Source: Desulfobacterales bacterium (GTDB lineage Bacteria > Desulfobacterota > Desulfobacteria > Desulfobacterales > JAFDHS01). From it: a DNA stretch of 59,763 nucleotides. Positions within the stretch are counted from its first letter, which is position 1; each line of letters starts with the position of its first letter. Both the position numbers and the translations under genes were made by a program. A model generated the notes under the pieces. It ran no database searches. It was not told the origin of the DNA and was given only the letters and a program-made list of their open reading frames with translations. This document shows, piece after piece, positions 18,678 to 34,600 of the stretch. The DNA is taken from contig JAUUWG010000002.1 of NCBI GenBank assembly GCA_030589165.1, positions 1 through 59,763 on the forward strand, read 5' to 3'.

Positions 18678-20119
18678 GCAACTTCTTTTTTCCAGTTTTG
18701 AACGTCAAACTCCCCGCCGGCTCTCCAGGCCTTGAAATCAATCGCAAATTCCGGATCGAGGGTCAGATTGACGGCAGGATTGATTCCGTTTCGAAACTGG
18801 TAGGCCCCCTTGTGAGTATCGAGATCGCCGACTACAAAAATTTTGCGTTCTTCAGGGGAGGTTTGAAAAACGATTTGACGGCAGAGCTCGTAGGAGTTTG
18901 CGGCGGCCGTATGCCAAGAGGTATTGTTAATCTGCAGCAAAACGGTCCATACGACCAGAAACACCACCCAGACTGCCTGCTTGAGCCATTTTGGTTTCGG
19001 ATTCGCACCTGACGGTGACAACAGAGCAGCGAGCAACATCGCAAATCCGGCCCCCGGCAGGTAGAGATAGCGGGTATTCTGCAGATCAGGGCTCACGGTC
19101 TGCAGCAAATTGAAAACCGGGGTTGACGTCAGAACAATCCAGGCCACCCCCAGGATCAGAAGGGACCCGGTTTTGTTGCGGCGGTGCCAGCCCGCATGAT
19201 ACAGCGCCCATAAAATGGCCGCGCCGTAGAGCGCCGCCAACAAGACAAGCGTGGCACGATAATAAACGGGACCCAGAATGGCACTATTCAGTGGAAAGGC
19301 AATGGTTTTGAGCGGAACCCACGTCAGATTGGAAATCAAAAGTGCCGGCGACCAAATCGCATGAATCGAATGCCCCTGACTGTCGAGGTAGCCCTTGATG
19401 CCGCCCAGCGTCAGCAACCGGAAAACCATATAACCGGCAGCGATCAGCCAGTAGAAAACCACCGCCCGCCGATATCGGGAAGCTTTGGCATAAAAAACCG
19501 CCAAAAGTGTGGCGACCAGCGGAAAGGAAAGCGCCATCTCCTTGTTCAGGAGTGCCGCCGCAAACGCCAGCAGAGAGAGAATCAGGTGCGAGGTCTGCCC
19601 TCCCTTAAGATAGCTGACCAGCAGACAGGCCGACAGAAGATAAAAAAAGACACAGGAGGGATCGTTCAATGCCGCCAACCAGGTCACTGCATCGGGATTC
19701 AAGGGCGAGAGAGCAAAGATCAGCCCCGCCGCAAAGGCTCCGCCGGCTGTCATTGCAAGCTGCCGGCATAATACGGCCAAAAGACCGGCATTCAATCCGT
19801 GCAAAACGACATTGGTCAAATGATAGCCAAGCGGGTCCAAACCCCACAAGCGGCTGTTGACCCACCAGGGTACAAACGAAAGCGGGCGGATAAAGTGGAA
19901 CACATCGGTTTCACGGGGCAGAAAAAGACCGAGCAGATCCCGCAACGAGGCACTTTTAAGAAGTAAAAGCAGGTTCCAGTCGTCACTCAGGAAATAATCG
20001 CCCAGAATATAAAAAAAGCCGCCAAGGGCAATCAGAACATACAGCCCCAGCAGCCGGCAGCGGGCGGCGAAGGTCGGTTCAAAAAAAAACAAGCTCAGTT
20101 TGTCGCTGGAGGAGCACAT
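18614..20119 (-). CDS. GT-C fold membrane glycosyltransferase (PMT/ArnT/TMTC-like, no TPR tail)
   Basis: 501 aa with more than 10 predicted TM helices. First-loop acidic motif YFLSDDWNLL resembles FYLDDFSSI of the TPR-GT-C at 49856. Confidence 0.65.
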   Translation of the reverse strand: MCSSSDKLSLFFFEPTFAARCRLLGLYVLIALGGFFYILGDYFLSDDWNLLLLLKSASLRDLLGLFLPRETDVFHFIRPLSFVPWWVNSRLWGLDPLGYHLTNVVLHGLNAGLLAVLCRQLAMTAGGAFAAGLIFALSPLNPDAVTWLAALNDPSCVFFYLLSACLLVSYLKGGQTSHLILSLLAFAAALLNKEMALSFPLVATLLAVFYAKASRYRRAVVFYWLIAAGYMVFRLLTLGGIKGYLDSQGHSIHAIWSPALLISNLTWVPLKTIAFPLNSAILGPVYYRATLVLLAALYGAAILWALYHAGWHRRNKTGSLLILGVAWIVLTSTPVFNLLQTVSPDLQNTRYLYLPGAGFAMLLAALLSPSGANPKPKWLKQAVWVVFLVVWTVLLQINNTSWHTAAANSYELCRQIVFQTSPEERKIFVVGDLDTHKGAYQFRNGINPAVNLTLDPEFAIDFKAWRAGGEFDVQNWKKEVAWGQKPPENPSQWDRIIDINN

Positions 20120-20715
20120 AGCATCTTCTCTACCGGTCCGAATATATCAATCAGGTTAACCGCAAGCCCTTCAAGGACTTGAGACTTGATAATATCTTCT
20201 TCTGCGTATATAATAGCTTTTGTATACTGCTCATCTGATCCTAAATGATAGATTAAAACCATCTTATCTGTTGGATGCACCAGCCAATATTCTTTAACAC
20301 CGTGTCTTTCATATAAATCACGCTTGATCTTGAGATCTTTTGCGGCAGTGGATGGTGACAGTATTTCTATAATCAAATCCGGAGCGCCTTTGCACCCTCT
20401 GTCATCCAGTTTTGACAGGTCACAGACAACTAAAATATCCGGTTGAACAACAGTAAAAATCTTATCATCTTCGGCATTGTCAGTGTCAGGCAGGCGAACA
20501 TCAAATGGCGCAATATTAATCTCGCATTCCTTATCATCCAAAAAATCAGCAAAGATTCTCGCTAATTTGAGAAGCAGGTTTTGATGAGAACGCGAAGGCG
20601 CCGGGCTCATATTATAAGCGATTCCATCAATCAGCTCCCATCTTTCATCATCCTTCCAGCCATAGTAATCTTTATATGTAAATTTTTTTTCTATCTTCTG
20701 TGCCAAAGGTGACAT
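20095..20715 (-). CDS. Uma2 (DUF820) family endonuclease
   Basis: FTYKDYYGWKDDERWELIDGIAYNMSPAPSRSHQ and the PDILVV...APDLIIEILSPST motifs. Confidence 0.85.
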   Translation of the reverse strand: MSPLAQKIEKKFTYKDYYGWKDDERWELIDGIAYNMSPAPSRSHQNLLLKLARIFADFLDDKECEINIAPFDVRLPDTDNAEDDKIFTVVQPDILVVCDLSKLDDRGCKGAPDLIIEILSPSTAAKDLKIKRDLYERHGVKEYWLVHPTDKMVLIYHLGSDEQYTKAIIYAEEDIIKSQVLEGLAVNLIDIFGPVEKMLCAPPATN

Positions 20716-20761: not shown

Positions 20762-21694
20762 CTAGCTTTTCAGGGCCCCGAATCTTCCCAGCAGGGCATC
20801 GCGCAGGCCTTGGACGACAAACCGGAAGCACTGCCGGGGAGCGCTGCCGTGGCGCTGCAGGGCTTTCAGATGGCGGTAAAGCTCGCCCCGGAAATACCAA
20901 AGCCCTTTCCAGCCTCCGAGCCGCAGGTAGCCCTCCGTCATGTTGCGCGCCATGTAGTAGTACCGAAAGGGAGCATGCTCGATCCAGAGTCCGTCCGCAG
21001 TGATGCGCTGAATGGTTCCGAGATGGTGATACAAGGTGGCTTTTTTCAGCCACCAGAACGCCCAGCCGGCATTCAGCAGACGAATGTGACATTCATGGTC
21101 GACAAAATCAATAAAATAATCTTCCCTGAAGCCGCCCACGGCTTGCAACGCTTTGACCCGGTACAGCGTGCCGGAGGTTATGGCCGAAGCGACGGCCACC
21201 GGCGGCCCGTCGGATTCGCCGTCCGAGACAGGCTCCAGCCGGAATCCGTTCCAGCGGTAGGGATGATGAATGACATCCGGAAATTGAATGCTGCGGGCCG
21301 TGGGACAAACCGCGCCCACCTGCCGGCCCTCCTGGACGAGTTGCTCGGCCGTAGTCAGTAAATCGTCCAGATCAGACGGGCTGCAAAGGCTGTCCTGGTC
21401 CAGCATGAAGATCCACTCCACTCCCATTCCGGCGGCGTGTTCGATTCCGAGGTTATACGCCTTGGCAACACCGTAATTCTCGGGCAACGGCATCACGGCG
21501 ACATCCGGCAGTGAAAGATCTACGATAACGTCAAGCGTCGAATCGGTCGAGGCATTATCGATAATTAGAATCGGCCGCCGGCAAGACGCTTCATCGGAGT
21601 ACAACGATTGGAGCAAAGATCCGATGGTTGCGGCACCATTGCAGGTCACGATCAAAATCAGGAGACGGTTTGGAGACGAGAGGTTTAGCGGCAC
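20762..21694 (-). CDS. Glycosyltransferase family 2
   Basis: LILIVTCNGAATIGSLLQSL...ILIIDNASTDST and the FMLDQDS motif. Confidence 0.85.
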   Translation of the reverse strand: MPLNLSSPNRLLILIVTCNGAATIGSLLQSLYSDEASCRRPILIIDNASTDSTLDVIVDLSLPDVAVMPLPENYGVAKAYNLGIEHAAGMGVEWIFMLDQDSLCSPSDLDDLLTTAEQLVQEGRQVGAVCPTARSIQFPDVIHHPYRWNGFRLEPVSDGESDGPPVAVASAITSGTLYRVKALQAVGGFREDYFIDFVDHECHIRLLNAGWAFWWLKKATLYHHLGTIQRITADGLWIEHAPFRYYYMARNMTEGYLRLGGWKGLWYFRGELYRHLKALQRHGSAPRQCFRFVVQGLRDALLGRFGALKS

Positions 21695-22926
21695 GCCCTA
21701 CCCCCGCAATCTTTCGGTTCGGTTGCGGCAGGTGCCGACTTTGCATCCAGAACCCATTCATGTGCCATCCACAGCATGCCGAATTCGGGATGGTCGCTCT
21801 CTACCAGAAACGGTTCGCATTTAAGCTCATGGATCGCCCTTACGACGTGTTCATCCGCAATCACGACTTTAGCCAGATAATTGCCGCTGAAAAAGGGAAT
21901 CGAAGGCACCACCAGCCGCATGGTCTGTCGGCCCGCAAATTCAAGGGGGGCAAACCCCGCGCTTTGGGTGGTCGTCGTGAAGATCGGCTGACCGTCCGGC
22001 CGTTCAATGATCAGGCCGAGATGCCCTTTGATGGGGGGGCCGATACAGCACGTTTTAATCTGAAAAATGAGGGTTTGGAACTGACGAGCCGTATCGATCG
22101 GATTTTCGCTCTCATCCAGCAGCAATAGTTCTTCAGCCATGATCTGCGGCATGGGCGCACCCGGCCCAGAAGCCGCCGCTTTGTCCTCTTTTGTTTTTGA
22201 GACTCCCTCTTCGAGATATGCAAGGTATTCGGAAATGACGGTTGAGGTTTTTCCATGGCTGCGCATGCCGCCGTCCGCCAGCCAGATGGATTCGGCGCAG
22301 AGCGTATTGATCATAAACATACTGTGACTGCAGACAATGATCGTTTTGCCGGCCTCCTTGAATCCCATCATGCGGTCGACGCATTTCTGCTGGAACTTCT
22401 GATCGCCGACGCCCAGAGCTTCGTCAATAATCAGGATATCGGGATCGACACTGGTAGCAATCGAAAAGGCCAGCCGCATATACATGCCGGAGGAATAGGT
22501 TTTCACCGGGCGGTCGATCACCTCTGCCAGTTCGGCAAACTCGATAATAGCGCCTTCCTGCTCCCGGATCTCGCTCTCGGTCAGTCCCAGCAGGGCCGCA
22601 TTGAGATGAATATTGCCCCTGCCGCTGAATTCGGGATGAAATCCGGAGCCCAGCTCCAGCAGCGCCGCCACCCGCCCCTTTTTTTTCAGGTGCCCGGAAC
22701 TGGGGGTCACCGTTCCGGCCAGAATTTTCAACAGGGTCGATTTGCCGGCCCCGTTTTCGCCGATAATTCCGAGGGTCTGCCCGTGAGGGATCTGAAACGA
22801 CACATTCTCCAAGGCTCTCACCAGCTGATGACAGGGCCGGCGGGTAAGGGCTTCCTTGAGGCGATCCAGCGGTCGCAGATAGACCCGGTAGTGTTTTGTC
22901 AGATTTTGTGCTTTTATTGCATACAT
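21685..22926 (-). CDS. wzt: Polysaccharide ABC exporter ATP-binding protein with a C-terminal Wzt_C-like extension
   Basis: Walker A GENGAGKSTLLKIL, signature YSSGMYMRLAF, Walker B ILIIDEAL. An extra tail of about 160 aa (LLLLDESENPI...FLVESDHPEFGMLWM) resembles the Wzt carbohydrate-binding domain. Confidence 0.85.
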   Translation of the reverse strand: MYAIKAQNLTKHYRVYLRPLDRLKEALTRRPCHQLVRALENVSFQIPHGQTLGIIGENGAGKSTLLKILAGTVTPSSGHLKKKGRVAALLELGSGFHPEFSGRGNIHLNAALLGLTESEIREQEGAIIEFAELAEVIDRPVKTYSSGMYMRLAFSIATSVDPDILIIDEALGVGDQKFQQKCVDRMMGFKEAGKTIIVCSHSMFMINTLCAESIWLADGGMRSHGKTSTVISEYLAYLEEGVSKTKEDKAAASGPGAPMPQIMAEELLLLDESENPIDTARQFQTLIFQIKTCCIGPPIKGHLGLIIERPDGQPIFTTTTQSAGFAPLEFAGRQTMRLVVPSIPFFSGNYLAKVVIADEHVVRAIHELKCEPFLVESDHPEFGMLWMAHEWVLDAKSAPAATEPKDCGGRACR

Positions 22927-22934
22927 AGGTAATA

Positions 22935-22974
22935 GGTTAGGGGTTAGGGGTTAGGGGTTAGGGGTTAGGGGTTT
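22935..22974. repeat. Tandem heptamer array (GGTTAGG), about 5.5 copies
   Basis: Read directly from the sequence. It lies between the wzt start codon (22926) and the 3' end of the four-helix-bundle pseudogene. It is complementary to the array at 23328..23367. Confidence 0.9.
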
Positions 22975-23327
22975 ACGCCTTGCTTTGATAAGTGCACCGA
23001 TCATTTTGCCAAGCTGACTGCATTCTTTATCGAGATTTTCAAAAAGATCCTTTTCAATATAACCAATTTCAAATGCTATCTGGAGCTGGGTACGTAATTC
23101 GGCCAACGAATCTTTAGAAATATAAAAAACCTGACTGCATCTTTATTGGTATCACGTTCATCCCCTTCAGCCAAATTACTAGAGATACTTACAGCACACC
23201 TTCGTATTTGATCTCTAAGCCCAAAATCTTTACCCAAAAGCCCTTTATTAGACATCTTATAAATTCTCACCGCCAAATCTTTGGCCCTTTGCCAAACCAA
23301 CAATCCCTTAAATCCCTTCTTTTCCAT
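22951..23327 (-). pseudogene. Four-helix-bundle protein gene (23S rRNA intervening-sequence protein / Avd-like family), interrupted by a -1 frameshift in a homopolymer
   Basis: N-part MEKKGFKGLLVWQRAKDLAVRIYKMS...QIRRCAVSISSNLAEGDERDTNKDAVRFF. C-part in another frame: YISKDSLAELRTQLQIAFEIGYIEKDLFENLDKECSQLGKMIGALIKARRKPLTPNP-stop. Adding one T to the T6 run (plus-strand A6 at 23124..23129) restores a 125-aa ORF. Confidence 0.8.
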
Positions 23328-23367
23328 TACCCCTAACCTCTCACCCCTAACCTCTCACCCCTAACCT
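23328..23367. repeat. Tandem 14-nt array (TCACCCCTAACCTC), about 3 copies, inverse complement of the GGTTAGGGG array
   Basis: Read directly from the sequence. It is followed by hairpin AGGGGC-GAA-GCCCCT (23369..23383), which overlaps the wzm stop codon. Confidence 0.9.
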
Positions 23368-23381
23368 GAGGGGCGAAGCCC

Positions 23382-24266
23382 CTATAACACATCCGCAAAT
23401 GCATGGCGGGCACGTCCGAAAAAGGCGACCCCGCTTAGAAAGAAAAAGACTGCCAGCGCCGTTGCATACGCCACCAATCCCCAGGAAATCGTGTGCTGCA
23501 GCAATATCTGATGATAGAGTTCAATAAAGGGATACATGGGATTCAGCTTAAATATCCCCATAAATTTTTCCGGCACCATGCTGACCGGATACAGAATGGG
23601 CGTCAAATACATCCACAATTGCAGCACCACACCGATAAACTGCCGGATATCCCTCACAAAAACACTCAACCCCGCAATCAGAATCACCAGCCCCAGCGTA
23701 AACAACACCTGCGTCATGACCACCAGCGGCAGATAAAGCCACATCCAGTGAAAATAGCCCTTGATCACGAGATAGCCGATCAGCAGCATAAAACCCAGCC
23801 CGTTCAGAATAAAGGTCACCACGACCTCGGCCACGGGCAGAATTTCAAAGGGAAACGCCACCTTGGTAATCAAATTGGCCTTGTTCAGAATAATGCCGGG
23901 GGAACTGCCCAGCGCCTCCGAAAAGGCGATCCACGGCAAGAGTCCTACCAGCAGGTAAACCACGAAACTGTCCGTTCCGGTTTCAATCGGCTTCAAACGA
24001 ATCTGGAAGATCACGGAAAAGACAAAAATATAAATCGGTAAATTGGCCAGCGGCGTCAGCACACTCCAGGCCAATCCCCCGATGGAGCCGGCGTAGCGCC
24101 CCCGGATTTCCTGACTGACAAATCCTTTAAAAAGGGTCTTGAAACGAAAAGGCGCCACCAGCCAGTGCCAGGCCATGAGCGGTAAACCTCGCATGCTGCG
24201 CACAAGCGCATAGATCCATTTTTTGAAAACCATTATTTGCTCCGCCATACCGTCGTCAATGGCCAA
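23382..24266 (-). CDS. wzm: ABC-2 type polysaccharide exporter permease
   Basis: 294 aa with 6 TM segments. N-terminal FVSQEIRGRYAGSIGGLAWSVLTPL matches the ABC-2 Wzm/TagG pattern. Confidence 0.85.
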   Translation of the reverse strand: MAIDDGMAEQIMVFKKWIYALVRSMRGLPLMAWHWLVAPFRFKTLFKGFVSQEIRGRYAGSIGGLAWSVLTPLANLPIYIFVFSVIFQIRLKPIETGTDSFVVYLLVGLLPWIAFSEALGSSPGIILNKANLITKVAFPFEILPVAEVVVTFILNGLGFMLLIGYLVIKGYFHWMWLYLPLVVMTQVLFTLGLVILIAGLSVFVRDIRQFIGVVLQLWMYLTPILYPVSMVPEKFMGIFKLNPMYPFIELYHQILLQHTISWGLVAYATALAVFFFLSGVAFFGRARHAFADVL

Positions 24267-25000: not shown

Positions 25001-26330
25001 TGATTAACTGTTCCTTTCTTCTTACTCATTCTTACTTACTCATTTTCAAAAATGAAGGGAAATTCCTGCTTCACGGAGGCTGCCCGAACGAACTGCTTAG
25101 GTCTTACTTCCTCTCCACAGGCTGTCACCGTAGAACCTACGGCCAGTTTTTCTAAATTAATCGCTGCATTTAAGTCTCGGTCTATTTTAAAACCGCAATT
25201 ATCACAGCGAAATACCCTATCCGATAAAGTTAAATTGTCTTTCTTAAATCCACATCTGCAACAGGTCTTGGAAGAAGGATAAAAGCGATCTGCCTGCACG
25301 ATCTCAACAGCAAACATCTTGGCTTTATAACTCAACTGCCTTACAAATTCTCCGAAGCCCATGTCTAAAATAGACCGGGAAAGCCGTCGGTTTTTCACCA
25401 TGCCATTGACGTTCAAATCCTCAATTCCGACTATGCTGAAATTCTGCACCAGCATGGTCGTTAACTTGTGGAGCGCGTCCTTTCTAATGTTGGCAATTCG
25501 CGCATGTAATCGAGATAGTTTAAGCTTTCCCTTCTTCCAATTATTAGAACCTTTTTCTTTTCGGGATAAAGACTTATTGAGTCTGCGAAGCCTTTGAAAT
25601 AAGACTTTATGAGGTTTCGGGCCTTCAACAATAGTTCCGTCACTTAAAGTGGCCAAATGCTTAACCCCAAGATCTACCCCGATAACCACGTGGTTCTTGC
25701 TAATTGCCGGGGTTAAATCTGTTTTGAGATTGATTGCAACAAACCACTTATCTGCAATTCTTGAGACCGTTGTTGATAAAATTTTACCTGTAAATCTCAA
25801 CTGTTTCCGCATTCTGATCCATCCCAACTTAGGAATTTTGATTTTACACCTATCAAGTCGGAATTTGTCATTAGCTATGTAAAAACTGTCATGTATTCCC
25901 CTTTTCTTAAAAACCGGGTACTTGCCGGTTCCTTCAAAGAATCTAACAAATGCTTTTCCAAGATTGGTAAAAGGTTGGCTGTTTGCATCCCGGAGGACAC
26001 TTGAAATCCAAGGGAATTCTTCATGCTTAAGAGCGTTGAATTGTTTTTTTAACGCAAAAGTTGATGGTTTTAAACCTTCCTGATACTGACGATTCCATTC
26101 TCCCAAGGCCCAATTATAGGTAAATCTGGCAGTCCCACAGGCTTGTCTAAAATAACCCTTTTGGATATTGTTAGGGCTGAGTTCTATCTTGTGGGCTATC
26201 TGGAACAGCATTTTATTCAGGTTCCTTTTTATATCTTGCTCATAGTGAGTAAGTATAGATAATTTTGATTAAGAAATTAACAACTATTCATAGCTCCCTA
26301 TTATTTACAAAACCTTAAATGTTGCACTTT
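25001..26330 (-). mobile_element. Solo TnpB (IS200/IS605-family, IS1341-like) element; approximate bounds
   Basis: Contains only tnpB, with no Y1 or serine tnpA. Sub-terminal 10-bp inverted match TACTTACTCA (25033..25042) / TGAGTAAGTA (26246..26255). The flanks are AT-rich. Element ends are not defined by sequence alone. Confidence 0.4.
25036..26211 (-). CDS. tnpB: TnpB-like RNA-guided endonuclease (OrfB_IS605 + Zn-ribbon)
   Basis: 391 aa. RuvC-I VIGVDLG, RuvC-II GIEDLN, Zn finger CCRCG...CDNCG, RuvC-III DRDLNAAINL. All catalytic acidic residues are present. Confidence 0.9.
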   Translation of the reverse strand: MLFQIAHKIELSPNNIQKGYFRQACGTARFTYNWALGEWNRQYQEGLKPSTFALKKQFNALKHEEFPWISSVLRDANSQPFTNLGKAFVRFFEGTGKYPVFKKRGIHDSFYIANDKFRLDRCKIKIPKLGWIRMRKQLRFTGKILSTTVSRIADKWFVAINLKTDLTPAISKNHVVIGVDLGVKHLATLSDGTIVEGPKPHKVLFQRLRRLNKSLSRKEKGSNNWKKGKLKLSRLHARIANIRKDALHKLTTMLVQNFSIVGIEDLNVNGMVKNRRLSRSILDMGFGEFVRQLSYKAKMFAVEIVQADRFYPSSKTCCRCGFKKDNLTLSDRVFRCDNCGFKIDRDLNAAINLEKLAVGSTVTACGEEVRPKQFVRAASVKQEFPFIFENE

Positions 26331-26372
26331 ACACCTTCGACCTTGAACTTTGAACATTAAACCTTAAACCTT
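26331..26372. repeat. Degenerate tandem heptamer array (ACCTTNA), about 6 copies
   Basis: ACCTTCG ACCTTGA ACTTTGA ACATTAA ACCTTAA ACCTTTT, followed by a T-run. No complementary partner array was found nearby. Confidence 0.7.
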
Positions 26373-26608: not shown

Positions 26609-27757
26609 ATGGCAGAAAAAATTAAACTGATCGTCAATGCCATTCCCCTTACCTATGTCAACACCGGGATCGGCCGTTATCTGCAATCTCTCTACAGCCA
26701 GATGGAAAGGCTCTATGGCAACAGAATTGAGATCGCATACTTTGACGGCCGGAAAGTTTGTACACAGATACCCAGGCAACCTGTAAATCTATCGCAATGG
26801 TCCAAGGCCGCGGACCTGTTCTGGAAACTTCCGACCTGCTGCGCCCTTGCCCTGCGTCTGGCTTTGCACGCCAGGCGGGAGATTCTTTTCCGCCGTCATG
26901 CCAGAGGCTTTGACATCTATCACGAGGTCGCTTTTTTCCCATTTTCGACGCCATCGCATGTAAAAACCATCTTTACGGTTCACGATCTGTCATTAATCCG
27001 TTTCCCTGAACATCATCCCAGGGAAAGAGCTCTCTATTCCAGACTCTTTTTCGAGCGCAGATGCAAAAATGTCGATCATTTCATCGCGGTATCCGAGTTT
27101 ACCCGAAAAGAGATGCAGACTCACCTCGGCATTCAACCCGGCAAGATCACCACGACTCGCCTGGCTCATTCCCCCGATATTTTTTTCCCGAAATCATCCG
27201 AACAGATCCAAAGATTCCTCAGAAAGCACTCACTGCCGCGGGAATACTTTCTCTTCGTGGGAAGCGGTGATCCCAGAAAAAACATGGATATCATTCCCGA
27301 AGCCCTTGAAAAATCCGGCCTGGATATCCCTCTGGTGGTTATCGGCTGGTCGGGATGGTCAACCGGAGGGCTGGGGAAAAAGGTGATATCCCTTGGATAT
27401 GTGGATGATGAAGATTTAGCCTTAGCCTATTCAGGTGCTCTGGCTCTGGTACTGCCCAGCACCTATGAAGGCTTCGGCCTGCCGGTTCTGGAAGCCATGG
27501 CTTGCGGGTGTCCTGTGGTGACTACCAAAAAGGCCAGTTTGCCGGAAGTGGGCGGAGATGCGGCCCTCTATATCAAAGATCCGCGGGACAACACCGAGCT
27601 TGCAGGATTACTTAAGGAACTTTATCTAGATCGAACCTTGCGAGCAGAACCGGTTCAAAAAGGCATCAAGCACACCGGCCAATTTTCGTGGGAACAAACC
27701 GCCGGGCAAACCTTTGAGGTGTTTGAGCGAGCGCTTGATACCCCTGCGTCAGGATAG
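26609..27757 (+). CDS. Glycosyltransferase family 4 (GT-B, group 1)
   Basis: EGFGLPVLEAMACGCPVV E-x7-E region and the N-terminal GT4 donor-binding pattern. Confidence 0.85.
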   Translation: MAEKIKLIVNAIPLTYVNTGIGRYLQSLYSQMERLYGNRIEIAYFDGRKVCTQIPRQPVNLSQWSKAADLFWKLPTCCALALRLALHARREILFRRHARGFDIYHEVAFFPFSTPSHVKTIFTVHDLSLIRFPEHHPRERALYSRLFFERRCKNVDHFIAVSEFTRKEMQTHLGIQPGKITTTRLAHSPDIFFPKSSEQIQRFLRKHSLPREYFLFVGSGDPRKNMDIIPEALEKSGLDIPLVVIGWSGWSTGGLGKKVISLGYVDDEDLALAYSGALALVLPSTYEGFGLPVLEAMACGCPVVTTKKASLPEVGGDAALYIKDPRDNTELAGLLKELYLDRTLRAEPVQKGIKHTGQFSWEQTAGQTFEVFERALDTPASG

Positions 27758-27827
27758 ATATCGACCCGAATCGAACCTCAGACAGGAGAAACGTTTTATT
27801 TCCGGAACCCTAAATAAAACAGTTGTC

Positions 27828-28970
27828 ATGGGCTGTACCCAACCTTACTGGTCGGCATTGCAGGTGGGCAGTCAGCATCTGGCCAGGCAGTTTGCAAAAC
27901 ACGGCTGGAAGGTACACTATTTTTCCGCGCCCATCTCATTGCTGCATCTGCCTAAACTGTTTGACACCGAAATCATAAAGCGTATCCAATGCGCCAGGCA
28001 GTCCCCGACACCGCATGCCAATGGAAGAATTCGATCGTATGTGCCCTCTTCTTTTATAGCTCCGGCAGGACTTTGCCTGTTAAGGAATAAGATGGTCACC
28101 CATAACTGGTTTAAAACGATGGTTCCATCCCTGAAAAGCATGCAGCATAAATCGGGATTTGAACGGATTGATCTTTTGTATATTGATAACCTCTCTTATC
28201 ATTTTTTACTGGATCGTCTTTCATATCAAAAAAGCATATTCAGGGTTATGGATATACATGAAGGCTTTCCAGGATGGCAGGGTAAAGCCCGGCATTTGGC
28301 GCAAAAAATTGCCGGACAAGTGGACGCAACCATATATTCCGCCCAGGGATTGGAGAAATATGTGCATACCCTTGGCTCCGGTAAATCGGCTTTAGTGCCC
28401 AATGGGGTGGATTTCGACTCTTTTAACCTGCAAAAACGATCGGGACAACGGCATCCGCTTCTCCAGGAGATACCTGATCCTGTCCTATTGTACACAGGAA
28501 TGATTGATTCGCGCCTGGATTTTGATCTTATCCGTTCAGCCGCACGCACCTTGCCCCACGCTTCGTTTATTTTTGCAGGTCCTGTGTCCTGCTCTGCCAC
28601 ACGGTTGACTGACCTGCCGGCTAACGTATATTTAATTGGTCCCGTGCCCCATGATGATCTGCCTGAACTTTTAGGCTCGGCCACAGCCGGTCTGATACCG
28701 TTTGACGTGAACAATCGAATGGACGTGATCCAGGGCATCAGGCCACTGAAACTTTTTGAGTATCTGGCCGCCGGCATCCCCGTCATCTCCGCCAAATGGC
28801 CTGAACTTGAGAAAATGAACAGCCCTGCCTGGCTTTATGACAATGAACAGGAGTTTGTAGAGCTTGTGCACAAAGCAACGACTGATAACCATGACCCAAT
28901 TGCCGCATGGAATTTTGCAAAGGAGCACGACTGGAAACATTCGTTTGAATTGATGTTGAACGCTTTGTAA
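27828..28970 (+). CDS. GT-B fold glycosyltransferase (TuaH-like)
   Basis: The start is placed at ATG 27828 (MGCTQPYWSALQVGSQHLARQFAKHGWKVHYFSAP). The C-terminal half has the pattern LLYTGMIDSRLDFDL...GIRPLKLFEYLAAGIPVIS. Confidence 0.75.
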   Translation: MGCTQPYWSALQVGSQHLARQFAKHGWKVHYFSAPISLLHLPKLFDTEIIKRIQCARQSPTPHANGRIRSYVPSSFIAPAGLCLLRNKMVTHNWFKTMVPSLKSMQHKSGFERIDLLYIDNLSYHFLLDRLSYQKSIFRVMDIHEGFPGWQGKARHLAQKIAGQVDATIYSAQGLEKYVHTLGSGKSALVPNGVDFDSFNLQKRSGQRHPLLQEIPDPVLLYTGMIDSRLDFDLIRSAARTLPHASFIFAGPVSCSATRLTDLPANVYLIGPVPHDDLPELLGSATAGLIPFDVNNRMDVIQGIRPLKLFEYLAAGIPVISAKWPELEKMNSPAWLYDNEQEFVELVHKATTDNHDPIAAWNFAKEHDWKHSFELMLNAL

Positions 28971-28977
28971 GAAAAGC

Positions 28978-29085
28978 CAGTGACGAGTGAATAGTGAACA
29001 GTGAATAATTGAGGAATTCTATCAATTTATAATGATAGCGCGGCAGCGCTACCTTCACTATTCACTATTCACTATTCACTACTTC
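28978..29085. repeat. Inverted arrays of tandem heptamers, (AGTGAAT)n ... (ATTCACT)n, forming a gene-less stem-loop
   Basis: Left arm AGTGACG AGTGAAT AGTGAAC AGTGAAT (28979..29006). Right arm (TTCACTA)x4 (29054..29081). About 28 bp are pairable with 3 mismatches. The loop of about 45 nt contains the palindrome TAGCGC-GGCA-GCGCTA. Confidence 0.85.
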
Positions 29086-29173
29086 ATAGTTCGATGAAGG
29101 CTGGTAACCATGGCGGTTTATTAAAATTCAAATATTTCTGGGTTAGAATCACTCTGAAAAGAAAACAGCAGGT

Positions 29174-31579
29174 ATGAATGTAATGGAGAAGAAAATCGAC
29201 TGTCTCATCATCCTTGGAATGCATAGAAGCGGAACCTCTACGCTGGCTGGATGCTTAAACCTGCTCGGCCTGGATCTTGGTGAAAATCTCATGCCTCCCG
29301 GTCAGGGCAATGGAGACGGACATTTTGTAAACAATGACCTGATCCTGGTCCATGACATCCTGTTGCGGGACCTCGGCTGCAAATGGGACATGGTCGGCAA
29401 CCTGCCCCGGGATTGGCAGGAATCCGAGGCTGCGGACAGGGCCGGAAAAAGCATCAAATCGATCCTGGAACGTAATTTTCCCTCTAATAAAATCTGGGCA
29501 GTCAAGGATCCCCGCATGTGCAGGTTCATGCCTCTGTGGCTTCCTCTCCTGAAGGAGATGGGAATCAATCCGGGCCTTATTTTGAACCTGCGCCATCCCC
29601 TGGAAACGGCCCGATCCCTCGCCCAAAAGGATGAATTCGACCTGCGAAAAGGTTTTCTCCTCTGGCTCTCTCATTACAGAGAAGCCTTCAGTGCCTGCCG
29701 GGACAATTCAAACGTGGTCATCACCTATGACCAGCTCTTGGCCGATCCTGTATCCACGCTCAAATTCATCAGCGAATCCCTTGATGTCGATTATCCCAGG
29801 TCTCTGCGAAAAACCTACCCGGAAATTCTGGATTTTATCCGCCCCGAAATGAAACACCAACACAGTGGCCCCTCCCAAAACAAGGAAGAATCCGGGTTTG
29901 CCCATTTTATTCATTTTTATGAGCAGATTCGCCGGTTCTGTGTGGAAAGAACAACGCAGCTCACTGCCGAAGCCGGTAAAAAGCCCGGGAGTTTTCAATA
30001 CGATACGAAATTGTTGCCATCAGTACTGCAACATTTCTCTTACAAGGATTCTGTTTCAGGTGTCCGAAATTCAAAGCAGGAAATGACCGTACTCGCCTCA
30101 GGCCGTTTATTCAACGATATTCTGTCCCTTATCGGCGATCATGAACGGGTTCAGCACAGCCTGCATTTGGAAAAAGAGCGCAGGCTTATGAACAGTACAA
30201 AGCCTGGAACCACTCTTTTCGCTCAGGTGTATTTCCCACAAGAGCAGGGTGCCGTCTTTATTGAGGAAAAGTCCAAAAAAATTCTGCTGGCCCCGGTCGA
30301 ATGGCAGGAGATCACAGTATCGGTACCTGATCCGATTCTTGTCAAAGACAAAGGTTTGCGCCTGAACCCGTTGAATACCAGAGGGATTGTACATATTTCC
30401 AGCATCAGGCTGGTGAATTCAGCCACCGGGGAAACGGTCTTCAAGATTGAAAAACCCGAAGAATTTGAGAAGTGCCGGATCAAGGAGGATGGCTTCTCCC
30501 TGCCCGGACAGGATGGTTTGGCCCTTTTTGTATTCAGTCATGACCCGCGGATCATTCTTCCTTCAATCCCTGACTTACCGGACTGCCCTCTGGAACTGCG
30601 GGTCTGGATCAAGGCCCAGACAAATCAGGAGGAGATCAAAAATCTCTGGATGCAGGAACAAACGGCCAAAGAAGCGCTGGAATCAGTAAAGCAGCAGATG
30701 GAAACCGACCTCGCCGAGGTCAAAACTCAATTGACTGCAGCGCGTGCAGAAACACAGCAAGGGCAGGAGCGGATTAACCAGTTGAATCTGGAAAATTCCA
30801 GGCTTTCCAGCAGTAATCATCTTTACGCCGAAAAAAACAAGCAGCTCAAACGCTGGATGGACCAACTCCAAAACGATTTCAACGCGCTCATGGACTCTAA
30901 ACGATGGCGGACAGGCAATGCGCTTATCCGATTCATTGAGATAGTTCTTTTAAAAGGCCGAAAGCCAGGCGCTGCTCACCACATGCAACAGACATTTGCA
31001 TCTTTTAACTCCATGCCGGATAAGAAACAGACTGAATCCCAGTTTCACCAATCATGGAATTTTGATCAAAAAGTTACTCTTGACCGCCTGATGCGGCAAC
31101 TGAAAAACGATGTATCAGCCTTGTCCAAATCAGCCCGATGGAAGACGGGAAACGCCGCGATACGAATTGTTGAAATCATGCTTCTGCGAGGCAGACCCCG
31201 CCTGGCCCTGAACCATATGCAGGAGATATTCAGCGAGTTTCACACAAAGAAAGATCATGGCCAAAATATTTCGCCCTGGTTAATGCAGGAATGGATGCGT
31301 CAGCTTGAATCCGACTGCCAAGATATTCTGGCATCAAGGCGTTGGCAGGTGGGCAACAGCCTGGTCCGAGGATTGGAAATGCTTTTGCTGCGAAAAAAGA
31401 GGCCCCTGGCCACTGATCACATGCAGAAATTGTTCATTCAATTCAGTCAAGGGGAATACTCATATCATAGCAATGATACGTATGAACAGACTGCTAATAT
31501 ATATCCTTCTCAATTCAACACGTATGTCTCTGTTGAGCAAGCGGCAGGCGAGCCTTATACGCTTCGGTCACCGCTTTAG
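29174..31579 (+). CDS. Sulfotransferase-domain fusion protein: N-terminal sulfotransferase, beta-rich middle domain, coiled coil, three C-terminal RW repeats
   Basis: PAPS P-loop-like ILGMHRSGTSTLAGCL. The middle domain is homologous to that of ORF 40567. The three repeat modules centre on SKRWRTGNALIRFIEIVLLKGRKP, SARWKTGNAAIRIVEIMLLRGRPR and SRRWQVGNSLVRGLEMLLLRKKRP. Confidence 0.75.
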   Translation: MNVMEKKIDCLIILGMHRSGTSTLAGCLNLLGLDLGENLMPPGQGNGDGHFVNNDLILVHDILLRDLGCKWDMVGNLPRDWQESEAADRAGKSIKSILERNFPSNKIWAVKDPRMCRFMPLWLPLLKEMGINPGLILNLRHPLETARSLAQKDEFDLRKGFLLWLSHYREAFSACRDNSNVVITYDQLLADPVSTLKFISESLDVDYPRSLRKTYPEILDFIRPEMKHQHSGPSQNKEESGFAHFIHFYEQIRRFCVERTTQLTAEAGKKPGSFQYDTKLLPSVLQHFSYKDSVSGVRNSKQEMTVLASGRLFNDILSLIGDHERVQHSLHLEKERRLMNSTKPGTTLFAQVYFPQEQGAVFIEEKSKKILLAPVEWQEITVSVPDPILVKDKGLRLNPLNTRGIVHISSIRLVNSATGETVFKIEKPEEFEKCRIKEDGFSLPGQDGLALFVFSHDPRIILPSIPDLPDCPLELRVWIKAQTNQEEIKNLWMQEQTAKEALESVKQQMETDLAEVKTQLTAARAETQQGQERINQLNLENSRLSSSNHLYAEKNKQLKRWMDQLQNDFNALMDSKRWRTGNALIRFIEIVLLKGRKPGAAHHMQQTFASFNSMPDKKQTESQFHQSWNFDQKVTLDRLMRQLKNDVSALSKSARWKTGNAAIRIVEIMLLRGRPRLALNHMQEIFSEFHTKKDHGQNISPWLMQEWMRQLESDCQDILASRRWQVGNSLVRGLEMLLLRKKRPLATDHMQKLFIQFSQGEYSYHSNDTYEQTANIYPSQFNTYVSVEQAAGEPYTLRSPL

Positions 31580-31666: not shown

Positions 31667-34600
31667 ATGAATAAAAACCATGACATTCAGCTTTTAAAGA
31701 CATCGGACCTGTCCGGATTCCATTATTCCAATCCGGAAGGCATTGCCGTTGTCATGCCTTGCATTGATACCGAAAAGGGCATGACAACGGCCCGGAATCT
31801 TTCTCGGCGGGCTGGCATGCCTTGTAAGGTCCTGATCGTTCATGACAGCCGACACCAAGGGTTCATCAAAACATTGAATGACGCTGCCCTGAAAATATCC
31901 GCTCGCCATATCGTCTATTTGGCTGAAGATGCCTATCCGGGACGCAATTGGCTTGTCTGCGCCTATCACACTTTGGAGAAAAGCGGTAAGGGGTTGCTGG
32001 CTTTTAACGACGGCAAATGGAAGGGACGCATTGCCTCTTTCGGTATGGTCAGAACCAAGTGGGTCAAGTCATTGTATGATGGCAAGCTTTTTTATCCGGG
32101 ATACGAATCCCATGGGGCAGACAACGAACTGACTGTCATTGCCCGGGTCCGGAATATGCATGCGTATAACCCGGACTGTACGCTTGTGGAGTATGACCCG
32201 GTCAAAGACTTTGGCGGTTCCAACCCAAGAGATAGAGAGCTCTTTCAAACTCGCTTTGTAAACGGCTTTGATGGAATGGTGCCCTTGAAAAAGCTTAAAA
32301 AACTGGCAAAAGAGTATAATGTAAAAATGCACCTGAAAAATCATGAAAATTTGACAAAGGGGTACAATGTGATTTGTGAGCCACAAAAAAACAGAATCGG
32401 CATCTCCATTATCATTCATGCACGTAGTGGCGCAACCCCGCTGGATCGCCTGCTCTCTGCTTTTTACCAAGTCAACACCTATCAACCAGTTGAATTCATT
32501 GTCATTGATAATACCCTCAACGATCAGACACGAAAGGTTGTTGCCAAATATGCAGCAAATGATTCTATTCGTCATCTAAAACGTAACGAAAATGAATCCT
32601 TTGCAATTTCCAATAATTTGGCTGTCAAAAAGGCAAACTATCCTTATCTGCTTTTTTTGAGCACGGATATCATCTACACCAGCGATGTGCTGCCCCTGGC
32701 AGTTGCCCAGTTGCAGGATGCGAACATCGGCGTAGTGGGCATTCGGCTGGACGATTCCCCCCCGAGCCTGCCGCCCGGCAATCTCCCCGGCGTACGGCAC
32801 ACGGGCATCAAGTTCGTCCATGATCCGGCCCATGAATTCTACAGGCCTCTTCAGTTGAGTCTGAAAACCATTGAGGAAGCAAAAAAAGTTCCCAGCAGCA
32901 TTTATCCGGCCGTGGCCGGAGCCTTCCTGCTCTGCCGCAAGGGGGAGTTTGAAAAGCTGGACGGATTTTGCGAGGAGTACGACTACGGGTTCGAGGATAT
33001 TGATTTCTGCCTGCGGATAGGCTCGAAGCTGAAGAAGAAGTGTTTGTGCATCAATGAGGTCAGCCTGGGGTATGTTGGCGGAAACACACGGCATATGGAG
33101 CCTGGTGTTGCGGGGACAATTCAGGTCAAAAACTTACAACTGCTGAACAAGAGAGCAGGAGGCCAAATCAGCAAGTTTCCGACCCAAAAAACCGGATCAC
33201 AAAAATCATTCCACATATCCCAAGAACATGCGCCATTCATAAAACAAACATCAACCGTTTTCAGCAAATCATCGCCAAATATTGGCCAACGAATTTTATA
33301 CATTATTCATGATGGTGGTGGTGGTATGGTTTATACATCGTTTGATTTGATGAAATCGATGAATCAACGTAATACATCTTTTTTATTAAAAACAGGCAAA
33401 AAAGAATGGAAGCTTTATGAGTACATTAACAATGAAATAGCTTGTAAACATAAGTATGATTTCAAAATAGACTGGAAGGAAATTGTTGATATTAATAATG
33501 AACGAAAAGCTGCTTTAGATGATATCTATAATAAACTCAACCCTACTCTGATACATTTGAGAGTCCTTATCGGCAACGGACCTTATCTCATTGATTTTTT
33601 TAAAAATAAAAAACTGCCTGTTGTGCTCTCATTTCATGACTTTTCCGCGATATGCCCGAATATACAACTAATCAATAATGGCAAGTTCTGCTATGGAGAT
33701 TGTGAACTGCATCACCATCAAAATGATTGCCATTATTCAAAAAGCTGGTTTGGAAATAGAAGACGACTGCGTGGAGTTTTTCGCTACAATTGGGCTGAGA
33801 GGGTTGCTGAGTCTCTTTCTAAATGTGACGCTTATATCGTAACATCAAATTATACTAAGGAAATTATTTTAAAAAATTATCCGATGTTGGATCCTGAGAA
33901 ATTTCACAATATTGAACATGGTAGAGATTTTGAAAAAAAATATTCATTTTTTAAGGAATATAAGAATGGAAATTGCTGCGATATAATTTTCTTTGGCGCG
34001 CTAAATGAGGCGAAAGGATGTTCACTTGTGTCTGACATCATCAGGATAAATGAGGACAACGACGGGCCACTGAAATTTCATATCATCGGTGGGATCACGA
34101 ATAAGTATAAAAAACGATTTTCCGCGTACAAAAATGTTATTTTATACGGTAAGTATGAACGAGATGATTTAAGAAATTACTTTGAAGAGATTAAACCAAC
34201 CCTTACTATTTTACCATCAATATGTCATGAAACATATTCTCACGCGCTCACGGAGTCATGGGCTTATGGTGTTCCTGTTTTAGGGTCTTCGCTTGGAGCA
34301 ATTGGCGAAAGAATACGCGTTCATGATGGAGGATGGACGTTGGATCCAGTTCATAAACAACAATGGTATAATAAAATATTAAAAATAATCAAGGACAAAA
34401 AGGATTATTTACAAAAACTTAGTAATATTAAACAAATTGATATAAAAAGTCTGGATCATATGGCAGATGAGTATTGTATGGTTTATCGTAACTTGTTGAA
34501 GCCTCAGCAAAAGATTTCATCTGCAGCGAAAATTCAATCGTTCTTAAAAAAAGTAAAATTTAAATCACCAGAAAAGAAAGAGAAAAATAATCAGAAACGG

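Follow-up and report, generated by a model that had tools for sequence, protein, structure and literature searches.

Relation to described elements

In Coxiella burnetii, Leptospira and others, the 23S rRNA gene carries in helix 45 an intervening sequence (IVS) with an open reading frame (ORF) for a protein of the S23p family (PF05635). In the Coxiella burnetii IVS, which is closed by a 28-bp stem between its termini, the S23p ORF follows three to four (GACAGAT) repeats, the number of which varies among strains; rapid amplification of cDNA ends maps the RNase III cut to the start of the first repeat (PMC4990558). Here we describe a gene of the same family in a window of 59,763 nt (the whole stretch of DNA analyzed: positions 1 to 59,763 of contig JAUUWG010000002.1, GenBank assembly GCA_030589165.1, Desulfobacterales bacterium). 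It specifies a four-helix-bundle (4HB) protein, is bounded by inverted arrays of heptanucleotides, and lies between the genes for a Wzm-like permease and a Wzt-like ATPase. This feature, at 22935-23367, is probably a degraded 4HB cassette of about 120 codons (PF05635/TIGR02436, NF008912), bounded by a hairpin and carried on the wzm-wzt message, the stem of which would be cut by RNase III.

The cassette resembles the ORF-bearing IVSs in size (433 bp, compared with 428 nt in Coxiella), in the complementary terminal arms that enclose a decay-prone ORF, and in the tandem heptamers directly upstream of that ORF (GACAGAT in Coxiella; GGACAGA/GGACGGA, with complementary 3′ repeats, in an Azospirillum copy, L093). 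It differs in its heptamer sequence and in lying in mRNA, at the wzm-wzt junction, rather than in a helix of 23S rRNA: no rRNA match was found in 22700-23600, and the cassette is flanked by the protein-coding wzm and wzt, so that it occupies none of the locations of 23S rRNA IVSs (helix 9, 25 or 45). Excision by RNase III is known for the rRNA copies and is proposed for the window cassette by analogy, and cleavage of the mRNA would uncouple two cistrons rather than fragment ribosomal RNA.

Intercistronic stem-loops processed by RNase III occur at sites in the early region of phage T7 and in the rpsO-pnp region of E. coli. Like the cassette, these place between cistrons a long double-stranded stem that could separate their fates, but they enclose no gene and are not built of tandem heptamers. 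Repetitive extragenic palindromes (REP) with their REP-associated tyrosine transposases (RAYT), and miniature inverted-repeat transposable elements (MITEs) with their parent transposons, share with the cassette the arrangement of one small gene between inverted copies of a short repeat, with gene-less hairpins at other intergenic sites; the cassette protein, however, is a small helical bundle with no recognizable nuclease or transposase fold, its repeats are tandem heptamer arrays rather than a single palindromic unit, and no target-site duplication is visible. Avd of diversity-generating retroelements (DGRs; bAvd, PDB 4DWL) is a distantly homologous 4HB protein, but the window cassette has no reverse transcriptase or template/variable repeats and its profile scores fall below the Avd cutoffs. 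We know of no Avd gene described as lying inside a heptamer hairpin. The last group comprises intergenic heptanucleotide repeats, namely the short tandemly repeated repetitive sequences of cyanobacteria and the intergenic TAACTGA repeats of Beggiatoaceae, for which a regulatory role on RNA has been proposed (PMC4679880). These too are tandem heptamers of variable copy number, often ending beside a start codon; they are, however, direct repeats upstream of many genes, whereas the cassette has two complementary arrays bracketing one gene family, and in the literature searched no link between such repeats and 4HB genes has been made.

Arms and terminal stem of the cassette

The cassette consists of the following features, with tandem repeats identified by the program TRF.

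23329-23367, minus strand: 5′ arm (TRF period 14, 2.8 copies, 100% matches)
23124-23327, minus strand: 4HB ORF, first part, from the ATG at 23327 to the homopolymer; the unshifted frame continues to a TAG at 23076
23124-23129, minus strand: site of the frameshift; the sense strand has T6 (A6 on the plus strand) in place of the T7 of intact relatives (AGG TTT TTT TAT)
22951-23123, minus strand: 4HB ORF, second part, in the −1 frame, ending ...IKARRKPLTPNP, with its TAA at 22953-22951
22935-22973, minus strand: 3′ arm (TRF period 7, 5.6 copies of (GGTTAGG) on the plus strand, 100% matches)

The wzm, 4HB and wzt genes all lie on the minus strand, the cassette being co-directional with both neighbors. 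Within a wzm-wzt gap of 455 bp, the repeat-bounded cassette of 433 bp begins 14 nt after the wzm stop and ends 8 nt short of the wzt ATG. The 5′ arm, read on the sense strand, is AGGTTAG GGGTGAG AGGTTAG GGGTGAG AGGTTAG GGGTA(AT), its 14-mer thus consisting of two alternating heptamers, AGGTTAG and GGGTGAG, which are purine-rich and fit the subfamily consensus DGGYNAK. The last heptamer runs into the start codon: GGGTAAT/GG supplies the ATG at 23327, in the same heptamer register as in the relatives described below. The sense strand of the 3′ arm is (CCCCTAA) x5.6; against the 5′ arm it shows mismatches of the G.A and A.C types at intervals of 14 nt. Together the arms make up a 39-nt inverted repeat that is 90% complementary, comparable to the complementary termini of IVSs. 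The motif GGTTAGGGGT (at most one mismatch) has 10 occurrences in the whole window, where 2.3 are expected, and 8 of these are in the flanks; none of 100 shuffles reached 10. Folding of the sense strand as RNA gave a terminal stem enclosing the ORF in both the minimum-energy and the centroid structure (z = −3.6; 0/100 shuffles as good).

The initial annotation, a first reading of the letters of the window, had placed a 433-bp cassette exactly between the wzm stop and the wzt start, with about 5.5 copies of GGTTAGG in the left array and about 3 copies in the right one, and had concluded that the transcript can fold into a long stem enclosing the ORF. The size, both copy numbers and the fold agree with the values given here; the position is nearly exact, with spacers of 14 nt and 8 nt.

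For genes packaged in this way we introduce the grouping "heptamer-hairpin 4HB cassette", characterized by purine-rich heptamers on the 5′ side and their complement on the 3′ side, and by an ATG in heptamer register with the ORF ending inside or beside the 3′ array. The window cassette has such arms, an ATG in register, and a stop codon in the third CCCCTAA unit. It also has the properties of an intergenic heptanucleotide simple sequence repeat (SSR), since its heptamers are tandem (TRF) and copy number varies at a related locus (L002). The (GGTTAGG)n array is telomere-like, and filters that remove host reads would hide such cassettes.

The scheme we propose begins with transcription of the cassette as part of the wzm-wzt message, the arms of which are predicted to pair into an interrupted duplex of about 39 nt enclosing the ORF. 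RNase III cuts rRNA copies built in the same way, and by analogy we infer that it would cleave this arm-arm duplex too, separating the wzm part of the transcript from the wzt part and releasing the ORF RNA, while an uncut stem would bury the ribosome-binding region and start codon of the cassette itself. The heptamer periodicity may arise most simply from replication slippage, which would be an easy route to the lengthening of two arms, and arms built in this manner could still pair in several registers.

The four-helix-bundle gene and its frameshift

The 83-aa ORF at 23076-23327 matches PF05635 with 67.9 bits over profile positions 3-62. A profile of the subfamily, built in this analysis, finds its match split over two frames, at positions 1-71 and then 67-118, and this PF05635/TIGR02436 gene is therefore not in a single intact frame. 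Restoring the frame yields a 125-aa product that scores 120.4 bits against PF05635 (cutoff 33.8 bits; profile positions 3-105 of 106), 123.5 bits against TIGR02436 (cutoff 24 bits) and 134.4 bits against NF008912 (cutoff 124 bits). Against the PDB it matches 2GSC (XCC0516; E = 1.9e-14) and 2RLD (E = 2.5e-6). The last seven codons, KPLTPNP, and the TAA lie in the 3′ arm, with only the first base of the K codon outside.

Because intact relatives read T7 where the window has T6, the window appears to have lost one T. In the sequence as assembled, then, the 4HB gene is broken by a 1-nt homopolymer contraction (T7 to T6), and the protein is probably inactive in the window; that a −1 slip on U6 would restore the frame is formally possible. 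The 1-nt deficit in the T-run, the restored C-terminus running into the repeat, and membership of the 23S rRNA IVS/4HB family had all been noted in the initial annotation, and our profile and alignment results bear them out. Homology to Avd, claimed there as well, holds in a distant sense only, through the match to 2GSC and with scores below the cutoffs of the Avd models; in the literature Avd and XCC0516 (PDB 2GSC) are homologous pentamer-forming proteins.

No near-identical intact protein from another assembly was present in the protein collection, the best match being 74-79% identical. The subfamily-profile search, which covered the 60 kb of the window, found no second 4HB gene there. One assembled DNA contig (1423 nt) runs from 24366 down to 23372 and through 428 further bases, so that it would end at about 22944, in the left array. 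An assembly artefact was considered as an explanation of the cassette and rejected.

Heptamer arrays around close relatives

We fetched 80 genomic loci (L001-L080) encoding relatives that are 52-72% identical; with the window these make 81. They come from at least six phyla, including Nitrospirota, Desulfobacterota, Verrucomicrobiota (Opitutaceae), Planctomycetota (Brocadia), Omnitrophota and Acidobacteriota. A strict period-7 test, which looks for a G-rich array upstream and a C-rich array downstream of the 4HB gene, was passed by 65/81 loci. With a second test, based on at least three DGGYNAK heptamers on the sense strand upstream and at least three on the antisense strand downstream, 59/81 loci were positive, where chance expectation was 0.24 and 0.41 and the wrong strands gave 0.2 and 0.8. 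Array density was 3.5/kb within 200 nt of the gene, compared with 0.56/kb elsewhere in the loci and 0.09/kb in shuffled sequence. In most loci the ATG is made by the last heptamer (..RGGYNAT/GGG), and the proteins of the relatives therefore start with MG.

The two arms vary together. Across loci, the state of heptamer position 4 (C or T) in one arm is correlated with that in the other (rho = 0.82, p = 2.5e-17), and so is position 7 (rho = 0.68). The arms of the same locus form a duplex of −72.8 kcal/mol, compared with −62.3 kcal/mol for arms taken from different loci and −54.3 kcal/mol when the 3′ flank was shuffled. Heptamer positions 2, 3, 4 and 6 are nearly fixed among these relatives. Mismatches in the stem fall mostly at positions 1 and 5, and opposite a 3′ arm whose complement reads GGG the 5′ arm tends to have AGG.

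At the Brocadia locus L002 (positions 2468 and 2877), population variants are exactly one heptamer short, the 5′ arm being affected in run X12 and the 3′ arm in run X13; in run X17 the cassette is joined to a different upstream sequence. Several loci have a second 4HB copy less than 2 kb from the first (L053, 4838-5041; L048, 976-1359; L056, 4198-4629; L061, 832-1227; L051, 571-963), and at least three of these, in L048, L056 and L061, sit between G-type and C-type arrays of their own. The second copy in L053 is reduced to its N-terminal half (profile positions 1-53), still bracketed by arrays; this points to an internal deletion on the way to a solo hairpin. One locus (L062) has upstream of its 4HB gene a (GAACCTT) array similar to the (AAACCTT) array found elsewhere in the window.

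Distant subfamilies and copies in rRNA

Plasmid-borne relatives that are 30-42% identical have the same layout with other heptamers. The arms are (GGGAAAA)n / (TTTTCCC)n on one Nostoc and one Geminocystis plasmid, (CAGGAGT)n / (ACTCCTG)n in Nostoc punctiforme, and of (GGAGATA) type on the Picosynechococcus sp. PCC 7003 plasmid NZ_CP016476.1 (L091, 1501-1857). This last cassette again occupies an operon junction, between cas10/cmr2 and cmr3 of a type III-B CRISPR operon. The Azospirillum lipoferum copy (L093), with (GGACAGA/GGACGGA)n and complementary arms, is embedded in a 23S rRNA gene (Rfam LSU, 2549 bits).

In a subfamily of Bacteroidota, related to the Bacteroides protein 2RLD, period-7 arrays flank the gene on both sides in 74/76 loci. 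The arms are (AATTGAC/AATTGAT)n on the 5′ side and the complement on the 3′ side, with a stem score of 23 for arms of the same locus and 12 for arms from different loci; the AATTGAC heptamer occurs also in copies from Oscillospiraceae, and a similar form in those from Aquificota. Throughout, the purine-rich arm (A/G-rich in Bacteroidota) is 5′ of the ORF. Since the same heptamer is found across hosts and different ones are found within Nostoc, the type of heptamer follows the protein subfamily and not the host. Packaging in a heptamer hairpin is thus a property of the 4HB gene family. In the literature searched it is undescribed beyond the heptamers of the Coxiella IVS, although that coverage was incomplete (few subscription journals) and an earlier description is possible.

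Two further observations concern the composition of the arms. Tandem AATTGAC (L215-L294, Bacteroidota subfamily) contains TTGACA, the −35 hexamer of sigma-70 promoters. The arms are AT-rich in hosts that make little use of Shine-Dalgarno sequences and GG-rich in hosts that use them.

Insertion, operon setting and selection

At the orthologous wzm-wzt junction of a member of the Desulfobacteraceae, UBA4064 (L081; Wzt 61% identical), the spacer is 131 nt long and contains neither cassette nor heptamers, which fits insertion of the cassette. Both neighbors are co-directional with the cassette in 40/66 loci, compared with 25% at random, the count being probably an underestimate owing to a crude ORF caller. 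The median distance from the upstream stop to the ATG is 36 nt, with the stop often within the array. RfbB-type dehydratases (18/76) and GT2 enzymes (8/76) are found upstream, and RfbA enzymes (12/70) and PMT-family transferases (8/70) downstream; this enrichment of glycan genes derives largely from two old, lineage-wide sites, rfbB/rfbA in Opitutaceae and GT2/PMT in Nitrospira.

In 12 pairs of relatives the core of the ORF has a dN/dS of about 0.10, a sign of purifying selection, and the 4HB protein is therefore functional there. Of the features expected in transposons or MITEs, neither a transposase in the cassette nor a direct repeat bordering the arms (GGGGCTTCGCCCCTC on one side, CTATTACCT on the other) was found; the search for further copies covered 60 kb of the genome.

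All 156 fetched close and Bacteroidota-type relatives (156/156) lie outside rRNA genes, and the rRNA copies therefore look like a special case. The initial annotation had seen here an IVS-like selfish cassette that had colonized an mRNA operon junction. As a description of architecture this is sound, the same layout occurring in the Azospirillum copy and the Coxiella IVSs. Colonization is supported as far as insertion is concerned, by the empty junction in L081, but the idea of an rRNA element that strayed into mRNA does not fit the location of the 156 relatives; and that the cassette is purely selfish is doubtful, because dN/dS in relatives is about 0.1 and insertion sites are kept across genera.

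Gene-less hairpins and arrays

The window contains one hairpin of similar build that encloses no gene.

28985-29086, plus strand: solo hairpin of inverted heptamers, (AGTGAAT) x3 and then (TTCACTA) x4.6, with about 46 nt of loop between them (TRF and sequence)

It lies between the co-directional ORFs 27714-28970 and 29174-31579, folds as RNA with −47.1 kcal/mol (z = −7.0), has no ORF in its loop, and uses a heptamer unlike that of the cassette; it may be a gene-less relative or a remnant of such elements. Many hairpins of a G-array and a C-array without a gene are found in the related loci, together with the extra full copies and the one N-terminal fragment mentioned above.

Exact (GGTTAGG)3 was found in more than 120 loci across many phyla. 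Among the 105 that could be scored, 95 were plain direct arrays and 10 were short hairpins; it is the inverted pair, and not the array as such, that is distinctive of the 4HB family. Matches to GGTTAGGGGTTAGGGGTTAGGGG (L095-L214) show (GGGGTTA)n to be a widespread intergenic repeat of Acidobacteriota, Planctomycetota, Chloroflexota, Cyanobacteria, Bacteroidota and Gammaproteobacteria. Its arrays often begin directly behind a stop codon, and about 10% of them form hairpins with a complementary array 30-245 nt away. Locus L122 contains a string of several repeat types, one of them a 9-nt GATGAGACA repeat in which the Coxiella-type heptamer GACAGAT is embedded.

The window holds an IVS-type cassette in an mRNA junction, and the generalization to the family is the more interesting result. 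Tentatively, 4HB genes with inverted heptamer arrays may constitute a widespread class of cassettes with heptamers cognate to each subfamily, in which the protein would recognize the arrays, as RNA or single-stranded DNA, and thereby control processing, expression or spread. ORF-bearing rRNA IVSs would then be the subset that landed in rRNA helices, and gene-less hairpins would be non-autonomous derivatives or landing sites. We think this extension possible rather than probable.

Alternative explanations

Several observations weigh against a hairpin cassette processed by RNase III. Excision by this enzyme has been demonstrated for the rRNA copies only, and the organism of the window is uncultured. 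In a wobble-pair test of L001-L080 the stem mismatches comprised 112 A.C and 58 G.U, the opposite of what is expected of a stem maintained in the sense RNA, and Watson-Crick pairing is only 55% at heptamer position 5 and 69% at position 1. Pairing of the sense RNA is therefore not the sole constraint on the arms, which may also be shaped by signals for translation, by recognition through a protein or by folding of the opposite strand; the A.C excess in particular could result from avoidance of extra upstream ATGs or from opposite-strand folding. The heptamer consensus is kept across phyla though synonymous sites are near saturation (dS up to 2.2 in pairs 72-77% identical), which hints at sequence-specific recognition. 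Weak, indirect evidence in favor comes from four RNA-labelled Brocadia runs, in which the cassette unitig is 1.7-3.5 times as deep as its flanks (assembled contigs), and from two runs with flat depth across the locus, read as DNA-like, in which the ratio of cassette to flank is about 1; an internal promoter or collapsed repeat copies might also account for the deeper unitig. Finally, a 4HB gene stands beside the array in 0/120 of the (GGTTAGG)3 loci and anywhere within up to 8 kb in 2/120, and arrays are therefore not diagnostic of the cassette.

The conservation of the heptamers would be accounted for if they bound the encoded 4HB pentamer or a host factor, so that the arms were kept for recognition as RNA or single-stranded DNA. 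In loose analogy to RAYT genes with their REP repeats, expression, processing or propagation of the protein would then be under its own control, and it would act also on solo hairpins, all of which is compatible with RNase III cleavage. Each subfamily has its own heptamer whatever the host, with DGGYNAK in at least six phyla and three heptamers for three subfamilies within Nostoc; positions 2, 3, 4 and 6 are conserved far beyond the needs of pairing while position 5 is free; and the orientation is fixed, the purine-rich arm being always 5′. Solo hairpins and a truncated copy near full copies, as well as purifying selection on the protein, point the same way. The subfamily heptamers, however, would also follow, without any binding, from transfer of gene and arms as one unit, and the motif may be a translation signal (AGG/GGAG as Shine-Dalgarno sequence, AT/G as start). 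No nucleic-acid specificity has been reported for the 4HB family in the literature searched, and the 0/120 (GGTTAGG)3 arrays adjoining a 4HB gene mean that most arrays have no nearby protein gene. On balance we regard a dedicated protein-repeat module as somewhat doubtful.

A second possibility is a mobile element that acts at the level of DNA, its arrays being terminal inverted repeats, or a hairpin or cruciform used by trans-acting recombination or slippage, with any effect on RNA incidental. The window carries a cassette at the wzm-wzt junction where a relative has none, there are several copies per locus or genome at unrelated sites, and these sites include rRNA helices, the cmr2-cmr3 junction and many operon junctions. 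A decay series can be drawn from full copy through truncated copy to solo hairpin, arrays differ by exactly one heptamer between Brocadia populations, and the A.C excess becomes G.T wobble if the antisense DNA strand folds. Against these stand the lack of a transposase or recombinase in the cassette or consistently adjacent to it, and of a visible target-site duplication in the window (GGGGCTTCGCCCCTC and CTATTACCT). The same sites are kept across Opitutaceae genera and across Nitrospira, so that movement of the cassette must be rare, and a purely DNA-level element needs no fixed orientation relative to host transcription. We find this account, too, rather doubtful.

Alternatively the stem may remain uncleaved and serve only to stabilize the upstream message or to gate translation: ribosomes finishing wzm would open the 5′ arm for the 4HB gene, and termination in the 3′ arm would be coupled to translation of wzt. 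The 5′ arm does contain the start codon as well as the only sequences resembling a Shine-Dalgarno sequence, and upstream stops are often inside or just before the array. The 4HB stop is in the 3′ arm, 24 nt before a wzt ATG without a Shine-Dalgarno sequence of its own, and in both arms three repeats suffice for stop codons in all frames. An RNA duplex of 30-40 bp that is nearly perfect is, however, a typical substrate of RNase III, and rRNA copies of the same architecture are cleaved; moreover, the frameshift in the window ends 4HB translation about 150 nt upstream of wzt, so that coupling, if ever important, is already broken. A role confined to translation or stability is unlikely in our view, although it, the protein-repeat module and the DNA-mobile element are not mutually exclusive.

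That the arrays are ordinary intergenic SSRs, flanking a small gene by chance or tuning wzt by phase variation, with no cassette as such, is very improbable. Heptamer arrays are indeed common in intergenic regions (the more than 120 (GGTTAGG)3 loci, of which 95/105 scorable ones were plain direct arrays), heptanucleotides are reported to be the most abundant class of long SSR in most genomes (PMC4679880), and populations vary by one heptamer. But arrays in general are mostly not inverted, whereas here a purine-rich 5′ array with its complement 3′ recurs in 59-65/81 and 74/76 loci, with covarying arms and a start codon in heptamer register; this recurrence and the covariation largely refute a chance origin.

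The accessory protein Avd of a DGR can be dismissed as scarcely credible: the matches to PF22296 bAvd (E = 4.5e-4, 21 bits) and NF033474 (33 bits) are weak and far below the cutoffs of 40 and 80 bits, no reverse transcriptase is among the annotated ORFs from 20.1 to 27.8 kb, and the only repeats in and around the cassette are the heptamer arrays, with nothing like a template/variable repeat pair.

Neighboring genes

The cassette is bordered by the following features.

23382-24266, minus strand: gene for an ABC-2 type permease (Wzm-like), upstream of the cassette; PF01061 ABC2_membrane, E = 1.7e-14; TAG stop at 23384-23382
23370-23382, minus strand: small GC hairpin GGGGCTTCGCCCC, from reading of the sequence; paired in the minimum-energy fold
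21685-22926, minus strand: gene for an ABC transporter ATPase (Wzt/TagH-like), downstream of the cassette; PF00005, E = 4.7e-21; weak match to PF14524 Wzt_C

The permease has weak NCBIfam matches to Wzm/RfbD and KpsM permeases, and the ATPase scores under the cutoffs of the NCBIfam models for TagH and Wzt/RfbE. In the 8 nt between the 3′ arm and the wzt ATG there is no obvious Shine-Dalgarno sequence. The hairpin GGGGCTTCGCCCC directly follows the wzm stop, overlapping its last base, and precedes the 5′ arm by 2 nt; it has no T-tract and was not called in the terminator scan. Within the cassette neither the promoter nor the terminator scan gave a match, and no Rfam family matches it, apart from one chance hit to a long noncoding RNA (lncRNA) below threshold.

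Both transporter genes belong to a cluster for glycan biosynthesis, which also encodes GT2 and GT4 glycosyltransferases, a PIG-L deacetylase, a methyltransferase and a radical-SAM enzyme. The annotated ORFs between 20.1 and 27.8 kb encode a Uma2 endonuclease, a glycosyltransferase, Wzt, Wzm, a GspC-like protein, TnpB and a GT4 glycosyltransferase. The putative restriction endonuclease gene of the Uma2 family (20095-20715, minus strand; PF05685, E = 4e-34) lies in the same glycan operon, overlaps the end of the next gene, and is another small gene of this operon that resembles an insert. The TnpB gene, of the IS200/IS605 family (25036-26211, minus strand), is located 1.7 kb upstream of the cassette with no evident link to it; it scores 328 bits with NF038281, below the cutoff of 425, and 308 bits with the guided_TnpB model NF040570 (cutoff 100). 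No TnpA-sized ORF adjoins it in the ORF list. Just past the 5′ end of the TnpB gene is a degenerate (AAACCTT) x9 array (26310-26372). Farther away an ORF of 2913 aa occupies 31667-40408 on the plus strand.

Significance

One search returned 1,884 clusters of the very large family known as "23S rRNA IVS protein / four helix bundle protein", which is annotated only by the odd place of its first sighting. The arrays described here explain why assemblies break at 4HB genes and why the starts and ends of these genes are frequently miscalled in annotation. If the gene is nearly always packaged in a hairpin, the ORF-bearing rRNA IVSs would be a general cassette that sometimes lands in an rRNA helix, and part of the excess of intergenic heptanucleotide repeats in bacteria would be linked to a specific gene family. 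Many operons, often those for cell-surface glycans, would then be predicted to be cut or gated at such stems, among them the rfbB-rfbA junction in Opitutaceae, the GT2-PMT junction in Nitrospira and the cmr2-cmr3 junction in a cyanobacterium.

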